Positions 27,731 through 46,097 of a stretch of DNA of 64,000 nucleotides are shown here, piece by piece. How positions within the stretch are numbered: the first letter of the stretch is position 1; every line of letters begins with the position of its first letter. The DNA is taken from positions 1,604 to 65,603 of the forward strand of contig CAYXUD010000148.1 in NCBI GenBank assembly GCA_964467775.1, given 5' to 3'. The notes under the pieces were generated by a model. That model saw only the letters and a list, made by a program, of their open reading frames with translations, had not been told where the DNA came from and made no database searches. Made by a program: the position numbers and the translations under genes. Source of the DNA: an uncultured Bacteroides sp. GTDB taxonomy: Bacteria > Bacteroidota > Bacteroidia > Bacteroidales > GCA-2748055.

Positions 27731-27796
27731 GGGATTAATGGTTCATTTTCATACAATTACGTGGTGGGGAAAGACTGATCGTCTGGTAATTTCCTG

Positions 27797-27842
27797 TTTT
27801 AGCATTTTTTAATGTGGTTGCAATCAGTCAAATCTCTCCACC
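27797..27842 (-). promoter_or_regulatory. SAM-II class riboswitch aptamer upstream of metK
   Basis: Minus strand reads GGUGG AGAGAUUUGACUGAUUGCAA CCAC AUUAAAAAAUGCUAAAA. P1 is GUGG/CCAC; GAUUU..UUGCAA and AAAU..GCUAAAA match the SAM-II consensus; metK is the classic context. Confidence 0.85.
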
Positions 27843-27933
27843 GAGATCGGACAAAGAAAGCAAATTTCGGGGATGTGACAAAAAAAAGCAGCGTATTTTA
27901 CGCTGCTTGTTCAATAAGTTGCTTACCTGCACA

Positions 27934-28914
27934 TCAACTGCATCCGGGGATGGACCCCATCTTCTTTTCCGCCCTGCTCAGGAAGGGCTCTTCCACCACT
28001 TTCTGAAGGGCTTCACACGCTTTTTCATATTCCACGGTATTCTGGTATGCATGTCCCAGTTCGAAATTAATGGCCGATATCCATACAGGCTCTGTTTCGA
28101 ACTCGAGGGCCTTCAGGGCATAATCGATGGCAGCATCGTACTCGATCTTCTTATTGCTGATCAGGGCCAGGTGATACAGGGCCCTGGGATTTTCCGGATT
28201 GGCAGCCAGGGCATTCTCACATGCCTCAACCACATAGGAATAGTCTTCTTCTTCAGGATCAATCATTTCGATCTCCTCCTGGATGATCTTGTTATAGTAG
28301 GTATCGATCACGCCATTGATGCTGCTGATGGTCTCCGTGTCATTTTTTTCCATGGCACCTTCCTTGGCCAGTTTAAACTCTTCCATCATAGGTTCAATCT
28401 CGCCCTGTTCCAGGAAAACCAGGCCTTTCCCCTGGTGGGCCTGGTACAGATCCTCATCGATGGCCAATGCCTTATCAAAAAAGGTCAACGCATCGCTGTA
28501 GGACTCGTTCTTATAGTTGCGCTGGCCCTCCACCATACAGGACTGCATCAGATACTTTGTGGCCTTCGAAGCCGATTCCTCGTTGTTGTTGAATTCGGCA
28601 GCCTTCTCAATGGTCCTCTCCAGGTAGGGGATTGCATTGTCAAACTGCTTTCTCTTCAAGAACAGTGTTGCCTGCCTGTAGTAAGCCAGCGGTATCTGCT
28701 CCTCGGCCTTGACTTTCATCTCATCGGCCTCGCTTCCGACTGCTTCAGCCAGGGCAAGGACCTGGTCGAAATGCACAATGGATTCATCATACTCCTGGTT
28801 GTTGACCCTGGCAACACCCTCATTAAATTCATTGATCACGTCTGTGAGGGTTTGGGCAGACAACGAAGCTGCCAGCAGAATGGCTCCTGATACTGCTATT
28901 ACCCGTAACTTCAT
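27934..28914 (-). CDS. Secreted tetratricopeptide-repeat protein
   Basis: Signal peptide ..SLSA/Q and repeated TPR helices (e.g. QFDNAIPYLERTIE, NPENPRALYHLA). Confidence 0.85.
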   Translation of the reverse strand: MKLRVIAVSGAILLAASLSAQTLTDVINEFNEGVARVNNQEYDESIVHFDQVLALAEAVGSEADEMKVKAEEQIPLAYYRQATLFLKRKQFDNAIPYLERTIEKAAEFNNNEESASKATKYLMQSCMVEGQRNYKNESYSDALTFFDKALAIDEDLYQAHQGKGLVFLEQGEIEPMMEEFKLAKEGAMEKNDTETISSINGVIDTYYNKIIQEEIEMIDPEEEDYSYVVEACENALAANPENPRALYHLALISNKKIEYDAAIDYALKALEFETEPVWISAINFELGHAYQNTVEYEKACEALQKVVEEPFLSRAEKKMGSIPGCS

Positions 28915-28965: not shown

Positions 28966-28982
28966 ACAAATACAATGCCAAA
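28966..28982 (-). promoter_or_regulatory. Putative sigma54 (-24/-12) promoter of the TPR gene
   Basis: Minus strand TTTGGCATTGTATTTGT; GG and TG have the canonical sigma54 spacing. Confidence 0.65.
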
Positions 28983-44224: not shown

Positions 44225-45214
44225 ATGGACACAGTATTGAGCGGGATCAGGTCGACCGGGAACCTGCACCTGGGGAATTACTTCGGGGCGGTGAAGAATT
44301 TTGTGAAAATGCAGCATGAAAACAGGTGCTTCTTCTTTGTGGCTGACTACCACTCCCTGACCACCCATCCAAAGCCGGACAACCTGCAGGACAACATCAG
44401 GACCGTGATCTCCGAGTACCTGGCAGCCGGACTGGATCCCGAAGTGGCCACCCTCTATGTACAGAGCGATGTTCCCGAGATCCCCGAACTCTACCTGTTG
44501 CTCAATATGAATGCCTATGTGGGGGAGCTGGAACGCACCACCACATTCAAGGAGAAGATCCGCAAGCAACCCGAGAACATCAATGCGGGACTGCTAACCT
44601 ACCCGGTGCTGATGTGTGCGGATATCATCATCCATAATGCGGACAAGGTACCCGTGGGAAAGGACCAGGAACAGAATCTGGAAATGGCGAGGAGATTTGC
44701 AAGGCGGTTCAACCACATGTACGGGGTGGAGTACTTTACGCTGCCTGAACCATACAATTTCGGGGATGAGCTGATCAAGGTACCGGGCCTGGATGGCACC
44801 GGCAAGATGGGGAAAAGTGAAGGGAACGGCATCTATCTTGCCGATCAGCCGGGGGTGATCCGGAAAAAGGTGATGAAGGCCGTGACCGATACCGGACCCC
44901 GGGAACCCAATTCCCCCATGAGTGAACCGGTAGCCAATCTTTTCTACCTGCTTGAATTGCTTTCCACGCCGGACACCGTTGAACACTTCAGGAGCAGGTA
45001 CAATGATTGTTCCATCCGGTACGGGGAGCTGAAGAAACAGCTGGCCGAGGATATCATTGCATTTACCTCACCCATCAGGGAACGCATCAACGAGATTTAT
45101 AACAATGCGGAAACCCTGAGGAAGGTGGTGAAAATGGGGGCGGAAAAGGCCCGCGAAAGCGCCTCGAAGACGGTCCGTGATGTCCGCGGGATCATCGGTT
45201 ATAAGCCGTTCTGA
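44225..45214 (+). CDS. trpS: Tryptophan--tRNA ligase
   Basis: SGIRSTGNLHLGNY, VPVGKDQ and KMGKS motifs. Confidence 0.97.
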   Translation: MDTVLSGIRSTGNLHLGNYFGAVKNFVKMQHENRCFFFVADYHSLTTHPKPDNLQDNIRTVISEYLAAGLDPEVATLYVQSDVPEIPELYLLLNMNAYVGELERTTTFKEKIRKQPENINAGLLTYPVLMCADIIIHNADKVPVGKDQEQNLEMARRFARRFNHMYGVEYFTLPEPYNFGDELIKVPGLDGTGKMGKSEGNGIYLADQPGVIRKKVMKAVTDTGPREPNSPMSEPVANLFYLLELLSTPDTVEHFRSRYNDCSIRYGELKKQLAEDIIAFTSPIRERINEIYNNAETLRKVVKMGAEKARESASKTVRDVRGIIGYKPF

Positions 45215-45257
45215 GGGCTTCAATAACCCTGAAGAAGATACGGGGGGAGATCGGTGG

Positions 45258-45291
45258 AAAAAATAGAAGTCCGCCTGTTGGAGACGGACCT
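45258..45291 (-). terminator. Intrinsic terminator (candidate sRNA and/or ung)
   Basis: AGGUCCGUCU-CCAAC-AGGCGGACUU then CUAUUUUUU. Confidence 0.8.
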
Positions 45292-45327
45292 GGCCCCGAA
45301 GGGAATATAATTGGATGAACTGTCACC
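45258..45327 (-). ncRNA. Candidate sigma54-dependent small RNA (~70 nt)
   Basis: Starts about 12 nt after a sigma54 -12 element. Single-stranded 5' part, CCC-UUCG-GGG hairpin, 10-bp terminator stem and U tract. No ORF on this strand. Confidence 0.55.
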
Positions 45328-45336
45328 TGATAAAAC

Positions 45337-45353
45337 ACAAATAGCGTGCCAAA
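45337..45353 (-). promoter_or_regulatory. Putative sigma54 (-24/-12) promoter
   Basis: Minus strand TTTGGCACGCTATTTGT versus the consensus TGGCACG-N4-TTGC. Confidence 0.7.
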
Positions 45354-45378
45354 AAGGGTCACTTCGGAACCTGCCTGC

Positions 45379-46056
45379 CTACAGGGACCAGTTGATCCTG
45401 TCAATCCCCTGCTGCTTCAGGTAGGTATTGGCCTTGGAGAAGTGGCGGCAACCGAAAAAGCCGTTGTTTGCAGAGAACGGGGAGGGATGGGCGGCTTTCA
45501 GAAGCAGGTGTTTCTGCCCATCGATCAGGGACTCTTTTGCCTGGGCATACCTTCCCCAAAGCAGGAAAACGACCCCTGTTTTCAATTGTGAAATCTTCCC
45601 GATAACCGAATCGGTAAAGGTTTCCCATCCCCGGTTCTGGTGTGATCCTGCCTGGCCGGCCCGTACCGTCAGGGTGGCATTCAGGAGCAGCACCCCCTGG
45701 TCTGCCCAGCTTTCCAGGCTGCCGTGAACGGGAACGGGGATCCCCAGATCAGCATGAAGCTCTCTGAAGATGTTGACCAGTGAAGGTGGCTGGGGGATCC
45801 CGGCAGGTACCGAAAAGCACAATCCATGTGCCTGCCCTTTGCCATGGTAGGGATCCTGACCGAGGATCACCGCCCTGACCTTCCCGAAGGGAGTGTGATG
45901 AAAGGCGTTGAAAATCAGTTTTCCGGGCGGGAAAATGGTAAATTTCTGCCGTTCCAGCAGAAGGAACTCTTTCAGCTCCCTGAAATAGGGCGACTGGAAC
46001 TCATCCCACAGGATCCTCTTCCATCCCTCCTCGATGACCGGATCAATAGGCTGCAT
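45379..46056 (-). CDS. ung: Uracil-DNA glycosylase (family 1)
   Basis: GQDPYH, GVLLLN and HPSP motifs. Confidence 0.97.
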   Translation of the reverse strand: MQPIDPVIEEGWKRILWDEFQSPYFRELKEFLLLERQKFTIFPPGKLIFNAFHHTPFGKVRAVILGQDPYHGKGQAHGLCFSVPAGIPQPPSLVNIFRELHADLGIPVPVHGSLESWADQGVLLLNATLTVRAGQAGSHQNRGWETFTDSVIGKISQLKTGVVFLLWGRYAQAKESLIDGQKHLLLKAAHPSPFSANNGFFGCRHFSKANTYLKQQGIDRINWSL

Positions 46057-46097
46057 GGAGATGAAAGATACCAAATGTGGATCTCCCATGCAATCTT

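Follow-up and report, generated by a model that had tools for sequence, protein, structure and literature searches.

A candidate small RNA gene between ung- and trpS-like genes

We examined a 64,000-nt stretch of DNA (the window) from an uncultured Bacteroides sp. of the order Bacteroidales (contig CAYXUD010000148.1, assembly GCA_964467775.1), in which an earlier note made from the sequence alone had proposed a sigma-54-dependent small RNA (sRNA) gene. The source genome is labelled G000 in all cross-genome counts. An intergenic gap (45215–45378) separates two convergent open reading frames (ORFs). On the plus strand lies a trpS-like gene (44225–45214) encoding a class-I W/Y tRNA synthetase (PF00579 tRNA-synt_1b, E = 2.8e-62), and on the minus strand an ung-like gene (45379–46089) whose product belongs to the uracil-DNA glycosylase superfamily (PF03167 UDG, E = 2.6e-16). 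Within the gap, the minus strand carries a unit running from a promoter to a terminator (45353–45258), which consists of TGGCACG-N4-TTGT, a spacer, a G-poor stretch, two hairpins and a T-run. All elements described in the earlier note were found at the positions given there, and the distance between the two gene ends was 164 bp, as it had stated.

The sigma-54-type promoter TTTGGCACGCTATTTGT occupies positions 45353–45337 of the minus strand, with the −24 GG at 45350–45349 and the −12 TTG at 45340–45338. It is followed by an 11-nt spacer (45336–45326) of fixed length and unconserved sequence, which connects the −12 element with the start of a predicted RNA of about 62–68 nt (~67 nt; 45325–45258, minus strand). 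The 5′ end of this RNA was placed at 45325/45324, 12–13 nt past the −12 position, by the onset of conservation at GACAG, and its 3′ end should lie in the T-run. The RNA begins with a G-poor, unpaired region (45324–45304, minus strand) that comprises the candidate seed GACAGTTCATCC and an A/T-rich part containing ATAT. Next come hairpin 1, CCC[TTCG]GGG, as predicted by folding (45303–45294, minus strand), and an intrinsic terminator (45291–45258, minus strand). The terminator has a stem of 10 pairs (45291–45282/45276–45267) and the loop CCAAC; its tail, on the same strand, consists of CTA followed by T6 at 45263–45258.

According to the earlier note, the unit contains no ORF. Indeed, no ATG, GTG or TTG was found within the predicted RNA (45325–45258), and the genus copies differ by frame-breaking indels of 1–2 nt in the conserved 5′ region. 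Lacking a start codon and interrupted by such indels, the sequence does not have the properties of a small protein gene.

The unit is conserved in related genomes

Taken by itself, the sequence gave weak statistics. The fold z-score was −1.84, and the motif TGGCAYN5TTG occurred five times in the window compared with 1.41 expected, a number reached by 2 of 100 shuffles. The case against a chance arrangement therefore rests on comparative evidence. BLAST searches with the region 45500–45100 against 40 relatives gave a match in all 24 genomes of the same genus, and in 23 of them the match covered the intergenic unit with 77–87% identity. In the remaining genome (G002, 82% complete) the match was confined to the trpS part of the query. 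The matches in the genus extended from ung through ~45258 or comprised solely 45353–45258 at ~80% identity. With the gap alone as query, the matching blocks ran from query positions 24–28 to 121–124, which correspond to the coordinates of the unit in the earlier note. Conservation at orthologous loci had been named there as a test that could refute the proposal; the unit was retained, with the same boundaries, in 23 of the 24 genus genomes.

An alignment of the 24 genus copies showed that TTTGGCA[C/T]G and TTTG are invariant and that the next 11–12 nt are unconserved. Past this spacer, GACAGTTCATCC is identical in all copies and is followed by a hairpin with a variable loop and by the near-invariant terminator. 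Judged by these comparisons, the unit is not a chance arrangement.

The promoter and its link to the RNA

Sigma-54 promoters follow the consensus TGGCAC-N5-TTGC, with GG at −24, GC at −12 and a fixed spacing between both elements. In the present promoter sequence, TGGCACGCTATTTGT, both GG and TTG are in place at exactly the required spacing. The position of the consensus C (45337) is occupied by T in G000, and the 24 genus copies carry T (15), C (6) or A (3) here. Because of this exchange the match is near-consensus and not perfect, which is how the earlier note had described the promoter at 45353–45337; the spacing and the invariance of GG and TTG bear this description out.

TGGCA[CT]G and TTTG were invariant in all 24 genus copies, and all of 28 divergent copies had TGG, A and TTG, with C kept in 27. 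No columns of the whole unit vary less than those of the −24 and −12 boxes, even in genera in which the 5′ region of the RNA drifts. Conservation ends after the −12 element and resumes at about the position where sigma-54 RNA polymerase would start transcription. The distance between YTG and CAGTTC was 15 nt in nearly all copies confirmed by the covariance model; the scan pattern described below, which required the promoter, allowed 10–18 nt.

A promoter-blind search for the seed in 401 genomes of the order yielded 15 matches, compared with three for the reversed control. Five of the matches were accompanied by hairpin and terminator, and all five carried TGGCAY-N5-YTG, placed exactly 14 nt before ACAG. 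The other ten were situated in coding sequence, with neither the promoter box nor the hairpin and terminator.

Transcription of the RNA might alternatively be driven by a housekeeping Bacteroidota promoter (sigma-ABfr) instead of a sigma-54 promoter. In Bacteroides thetaiotaomicron, the housekeeping consensus (TAnnTTTG at −7, TTTG at −33) is assigned to 76% of the intergenic sRNA candidates, according to PMC7366714, and the present sequence does contain two TTTG words. These are only 8 nt apart, however, instead of about 20; the TA does not lie in register, the eight letters ahead of the spacer being GCTATTTG or GCAATTTG; the invariant GGCAC would have no explanation; and a −7 box at this place would shift the start ~7 nt upstream of the onset of conservation. 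A housekeeping promoter is thus highly improbable as the source of the RNA.

The sigma-54 gene itself, rpoN, is located in the same window, 11.5 kb from the RNA unit. A 485-aa open frame on the plus strand contains a 179-bit match to the sigma-54 DNA-binding domain PF04552 (33358–33831; G000:C148:34961-35434). Throughout the genome there are 12 PF00158 matches of more than 180 bits, which represent enhancer-binding activators, and 95 sigma-54-like boxes. Of these boxes, 25 lie within the ~10% of the genome that is non-coding, many of them with an ORF of the same strand at 18–100 nt. Elsewhere in the Bacteroidota, a functional −24/−12 sigma-54 motif has been reported (PMC9723704).

Covariation supports a two-hairpin structure

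In the centroid fold the 5′ region of the RNA is largely unpaired. The seed GACAGTTCATCC provides 12 consecutive unpaired nucleotides that are invariant in 24/24 genus copies, and CAGTTC and ATAT are the best-kept columns of the RNA in other genera.

For the two hairpins, compensatory changes were detected at 15 of 16 pairs. All six pairs of the hairpin 1 helix showed changes on both sides in each of the alignments A2 and A4. The terminator stem is near-invariant within the genus; between families, the stems are plainly different in sequence, and nine of ten pairs have undergone compensatory changes, with pairing maintained at 96–97% in A2 and A4. Over the whole structure, pairing amounted to 93.7% of cells in A2 and 92.1% in A4, compared with 80.5% and 68.5% after shuffling, respectively, and none of 500 shuffles reached the observed value in either alignment, a comparison to be read in the light of the fitting of both alignments to the model, which favours the structure. 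When the partners were slid by one column, pairing fell to ~60%. With a hairpin, a U-run and a stem kept by compensatory change, the 3′ part of the RNA has the properties of an intrinsic terminator.

The extra-stable cUUCGg tetraloop to which the earlier note had drawn attention is present in G000 but is lineage-specific and not conserved. The UUCG form occurs in G000 and 2 of its 23 genus relatives (3/24 copies), whereas the other 21 have a hairpin of 4–6 bp on the same CCC/GGG base. CCC-TTCG-GGG is a shortened form of the longer hairpin 1 with variable loop that is found in the relatives.

Two other pairings suggested by folding programs were rejected. Folding of the whole gap paired 45370–45361 with the region of hairpin 1. 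The former segment belongs to an insertion that exists in G000 only and is absent from the relatives, and this pairing is probably accidental because the insertion is not conserved. RNAalifold proposed a pairing of TGGC with GCCA, for which no covariation was seen, the linker reading GCAA or GCAC in other genera.

Distribution of the RNA gene

For searches across genomes, a covariance model (R1) was built from the 24 genus copies, and a second covariance model (R2) was used in addition. R1 detected one copy in the source genome. Among 151 genomes representing one genome per family of the order, copies were present in eight, six of which belong to other families, and 143 were non-carriers. R2 detected a single copy in 81 of the 91 genomes that represent the family, with 14/14 genera and 50 of the 54 high-quality genomes among the carriers, while 0 of 150 other genomes from a phylum-wide draw had a copy. 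Among the other Bacteroidales families, a minority contain the RNA gene.

A pattern scan of the species-representative collection returned at least 118 stretches, from which 80 loci were fetched. R1 matched 48 of these 80 loci with 50 copies in total; one match (L082) was marginal (22.3 bits). The remaining 47 matched loci were labelled Bacteroidales, Bacteroidia, Bacteroidota or 'Bacteroides' metagenome-assembled genome, and all fetched loci labelled with other phyla failed R1. From these labels and failures, the order in which the RNA gene occurs is Bacteroidales. The carriers are environmental Bacteroidales lineages known as metagenome assemblies.

Two genomes of other families, G079 and G034, contained tandem copies of the RNA gene, ~38 nt apart (L035 472–737, the same place as L110, and L037 1501–1780, the same place as L070). 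A sigma-54 box and a terminator of its own belong to each copy, the seed reads UUCUUCC, and the pair is located downstream of a LapA-domain gene instead of ung. In G031, likewise from another family (L034 324–1614), the RNA gene has the seed UUCACCU and follows trpS at a distance of 50 nt, reading in its direction instead of converging with it.

Genomic context and possible action in cis

Neighbouring genes were compared at 60 unique loci. A same-strand ung-like gene was present upstream at 45 and a convergent trpS-like gene downstream at 32; 22 loci had both and five had neither. The promoter commonly starts 5–6 nt after the ung stop codon. In G000 this distance is 25 nt, and the segment between stop codon and promoter is an insertion specific to this genome (45354–45378, minus strand, ~21–25 nt; a gap in 23/23 aligned relatives). 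Similarly, the 3′ end of the RNA is often only 1–5 nt from the trpS stop codon in other genomes, compared with 43 nt in G000. These counts reveal tight synteny with ung and trpS, a point missed in the earlier note, and this synteny raises explanations in which the element acts in cis.

Other neighbours were also seen. Downstream, trpS is replaced by DUF4838, TPR or outer-membrane genes, and upstream, ung is replaced by a LapA-domain gene, a histidine kinase gene or a divergent gene that was read by eye as gatC. Both in the window and at the examined loci, the gene that comes next after the terminator is convergent. As no gene follows the terminator on the same strand, the unit is not a leader, an attenuator or a riboswitch.

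The RNA could act on its neighbours as an antisense RNA to read-through trpS mRNA or through a shared terminator, with sigma-54 modulating trpS or ung. This would fit the convergent trpS-like neighbour at 32 of the 60 unique loci, at some of them without ung and with its stop codon often 1–5 nt away, as well as locus L034, where the RNA directly follows trpS on its strand. Moreover, the hairpin is not followed by a T-run on the trpS strand, which makes read-through from trpS plausible. Against this, 43 nt separate the trpS stop codon from the RNA in G000; at least 12 of the 23 genus loci have another downstream neighbour (DUF4838, TPR or outer-membrane protein) at a distance of 130–240 nt with the RNA equally conserved; five unique loci lack both an upstream ung and a convergent trpS; and an antisense role needs neither an invariant 5′ stretch nor a covarying hairpin 1. 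Regulation of trpS or ung in cis is therefore unlikely to be the function of the unit.

Alternatively, there may be no separate transcript, and the conserved block would be the 3′ untranslated region (UTR) of ung with its terminator, the box being some other conserved site or a place of non-productive sigma-54 binding. The box begins 5–6 nt past the ung stop codon in most genomes, no other terminator for ung is visible, and no upstream activator site was seen. However, unit and box persist after a LapA-domain gene, a histidine kinase gene, trpS or a divergent gene, and tandem copies each repeat the box. Furthermore, the box fits sigma-54 in spacing and letters and is invariant where the RNA drifts, and its apparent TGGC–GCCA pairing is lost in other genera. 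We consider a mere ung 3′ UTR quite improbable. The unit behaves as an autonomous gene inherited in an old ung–trpS gap, from which it may still exert effects in cis on these two genes.

Searches for targets of the predicted RNA

The earlier note had suggested that the seed pairs with an A/U-rich leader and the AUG start codon of target mRNAs. In G000, the exact seed complement GGATGAACTGTC occurred at two sites outside the RNA gene itself, none of them at a called gene start; one is located inside a same-strand ORF and the other off the called gene starts. Duplex energies were calculated for 3177 crudely defined start regions. The best value was −23.2 kcal/mol (mean −9.8, standard deviation 3.0), and the top sites were mostly codons for peptides containing DEL.

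In the 91 genomes of the family, the 12-mer GGATGAACTGTC gave 212 matches compared with four for the reversed control. Twenty of the non-self sites were fetched and all were coding; 16 are situated in nusG, rpoC and ETF-alpha-like genes, where they encode the peptide DELS (e.g. L173–L187). The excess of the 12-mer, traced mainly to DELS codons in the fetched sites, is a trap for target prediction based on the seed. At the nusG site, 20 of 22 positions pair with one variant of the sRNA (counted by hand). Nevertheless, nusG was rejected as a target, its codons differing synonymously in five other sRNA-bearing families without following the seed variants, and the nusG, rpoC and ETF-alpha-like sites were all dismissed as coincidences of DELS codons that show no covariation. 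In G000, two mismatches to the seed are present at the sites in rpoC and the ETF gene. No nusG was found in the G000 assembly by tblastn (best E = 0.43), and the stretch from nusG to rpoB is probably unassembled in this 96%-complete genome. Contig C85 (G000:C85:1-823) starts inside rpoC.

A site in the 5′ UTR of an epimerase-like gene (G000:C89) was also rejected, as it is absent from 17/17 orthologous upstream regions. For the seed variant of G034 and G079, the complement GGAAGAACTGC gave 13 non-self sites in these two genomes, with no gene in common. Family members with the seed UUCUUCC instead of UUCAUCC lose the complement to AUG. The proposal of a seed covering the start codon is weakened by these lineages, and no conserved site of this kind emerged.

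Instead of pairing with mRNA, the predicted RNA might serve as a sponge or decoy that binds or sequesters a protein. This would agree with the lack of a conserved complementary target in our searches. The letters of the seed drift across genera (ATCC, TTCC, AACC, AATT and others) while CAGTTC, ATATACC and the base of the hairpin stay, as would suit a motif recognized by a protein, and two RRM_1 proteins are encoded in the genome (G000:C64:10531-10740 and C78:11592-11801). The absence of Hfq, which the earlier note had assumed, holds for this genome, where no match was found. Known sponges such as CrcZ and RsmZ carry several copies of their motif, whereas the present RNA has one short single-stranded motif without repeats. 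Its 12 consecutive unpaired nucleotides are invariant in the genus, as in typical seeds, and the target search, made without annotated genomes, was a crude one. Protein binding as the main function thus appears doubtful.

Other sigma-54-type elements in the genome

The earlier note had suggested a search for further units of sigma-54 motif and terminator. When we scanned all 95 boxes, four turned out to be followed by a hairpin and a T-run, and two of these matches are non-coding: the ung/trpS RNA and a second, unrelated unit at G000:C11:4264-4371 (minus strand; locus L273, about 565–672), outside the window. In this second unit, the box (TGTGGCAT-N5-TTTG) does not vary, and neither does the G/U-rich body, which contains UAGUU-like repeats; the spacer differs in length between copies, and the terminator covaries. 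Searches of 18 genomes of the genus found the unit in 15, and none of 12 other families had it. Its sole Rfam signal, RF04180 BTnc231, was far below the threshold (16.1 bits compared with a cut-off of 80.4). The second unit strengthens the view that sRNAs driven by sigma-54 are a feature of this lineage.

Within the window, a further sigma-54-type box, TGGCATTGTATTTGT (28966–28980, minus strand), precedes a TPR-repeat ORF on the same strand (27937–28914) by 52 nt. TGGCA is kept in 23 of 24 aligned genus sequences including G000, and TTGT is also there. At the sequence level, this agrees with the assignment of the TPR gene to a sigma-54 regulon in the earlier note. A 5′ leader rich in A/T is conserved as well. 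The TPR ORF is closely followed, again on the minus strand, by a SAM-II (long-loop) riboswitch (27789–27847; 68.2 bits, gathering threshold 44).

Discussion

Observed features of the unit are its anatomy, its conservation, its covarying structure, the association of the RNA with the promoter and the lack of a gene downstream. They are best explained by an independent non-coding RNA gene of ~67 nt that is transcribed by sigma-54 RNA polymerase and whose product is likely to act in trans; we estimate the probability of this explanation as a whole at about 0.6. That the locus holds a conserved RNA gene with a sigma-54 promoter appears very likely from the comparative data. For a regulator that acts in trans by base pairing, we see roughly even odds.

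Transcription of the predicted RNA, its dependence on sigma-54 and its action in trans are steps that we infer. In the mechanism envisaged, an enhancer-binding activator, one of about 12 in the genome, would switch on the TGGCACG-N4-TTGT promoter. Sigma-54 RNA polymerase would start at about 45325/45324 and terminate at the hairpin with its U-run, which ends at 45258. The working part of the RNA would be its 5′ stretch of ~21 nt, G-poor and unpaired, which would most likely pair with mRNAs in trans, without Hfq and perhaps helped by RRM-type proteins. In this way the RNA would give one sigma-54 signalling pathway a post-transcriptional output. Base pairing in trans is favoured because of the 12 unpaired nucleotides that are invariant across the genus and because of the sRNA-like design with a 5′ seed, a small hairpin and a terminator.

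Several observations weigh against this explanation. The −12 element has T instead of the consensus C in G000 and the others of the 15/24 genus copies with this exchange. Activators of sigma-54 bind about 70–150 bp upstream of the promoter; an alignment of 260 nt upstream of the unit showed only codon-periodic conservation in ung and no conserved activator site; in contexts other than ung, no shared upstream motif was recognized by eye, without the use of a motif-finding program. No PF00158 gene is located on the contig of the RNA in G000. The tight synteny with the stop codons of ung and trpS would also fit a role in cis, and the seed-complement, energy and orthologue searches revealed no conserved complementary site in an mRNA. 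Finally, the promoter is part of the models to which A2 and A4 were fitted, and it was also required by the pattern that supplied the loci of A2. Hence, promoter conservation in both alignments is partly circular, and evidence independent of the promoter comes solely from the BLAST searches and alignments within the genus and from the promoter-blind seed search.

Through a single-copy RNA gene that occurs in nearly all genomes of a family and has a promoter better conserved than its RNA, one pathway of enhancer-binding proteins would be connected with post-transcriptional control, in a phylum that lacks Hfq. To our knowledge, few sRNAs have been characterized in the Bacteroidota, almost all of them from gut Bacteroides. 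The RNA unit could serve as a clean and short reporter of sigma-54 activity in uncultured Bacteroidales, and the covariance models R1 and R2 could be the starting point of an entry for a new RNA family. At present the value of the finding is limited, as its carriers are environmental lineages known from metagenome assembly.

In Rfam 15, no family matches the RNA. At the gathering threshold, the SAM-II riboswitch at 27789–27847 was the only hit in the whole window, and a search of 45150–45450 at E ≤ 10 returned SNORD110 (17.9 bits compared with 64) and RAGATH-25 (10.3 compared with 49), both on the other strand. A literature search that excluded most subscription journals and the sRNA-table supplements of PMC7366714 and PMC9723704 found no description of the RNA and no sigma-54-dependent sRNA in the Bacteroidota.

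The sRNAs of Bacteroides, such as GibS and the BTnc families of Rfam 15, come from the same order. Like the predicted RNA, they do without Hfq and combine an unstructured seed with a terminator, as can be taken from PMC7366714; in contrast, none of their Rfam families matches the present RNA. In the transcriptome map of B. thetaiotaomicron, sRNA promoters are of the housekeeping or 'PM2' type, and RpoN or sigma-54 is mentioned zero times in the article (PMC7366714).

The closest functional resemblance is to the Qrr1–5 sRNAs of Vibrio, which depend on sigma-54 and LuxO (10.1101/2021.07.01.450815). Both are short RNA genes with a sigma-54 promoter, an intrinsic terminator and a highly conserved unpaired region, and in both the copy number is one or several depending on the genome. 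They differ in phylum and in the absence of Hfq and of visible LuxO-type sites here, and no Rfam similarity was detected at E ≤ 10, although Rfam presumably holds Qrr. The other sigma-54-dependent sRNAs GlmY, CrcZ, NrsZ, NfiS and Pxr belong to the Pseudomonadota or Myxococcota and are longer than the present RNA. They share with it the principle that an activator drives a non-coding RNA as the post-transcriptional output of a pathway, but sequence, length and phylum are different and the RNA has no Rfam match.

In its placement, the unit resembles the type I sRNAs that are embedded in 3′ UTRs, such as MicL, with a sigma-E promoter inside cutC, and DapZ. Here, too, an sRNA would lie at the 3′ end of a protein gene, with its own alternative-sigma promoter and probably a shared terminator. 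In contrast to MicL and DapZ, the promoter is located just past the stop codon and not in the coding region, and the unit is also found away from ung. We tentatively propose, at somewhat less than even odds, that it represents the first sigma-54-dependent riboregulator family of the Bacteroidota, that it does not stand alone, given the second unit, and that signalling through enhancer-binding proteins is routinely equipped with sRNA output arms in these Hfq-less Bacteroidales, which would be a regulatory layer not known to have been described for the phylum. The best reading of the comparisons is that the unit constitutes a new family of sigma-54-dependent sRNAs, which would resemble Qrr in function and MicL in placement and would be a member of neither.

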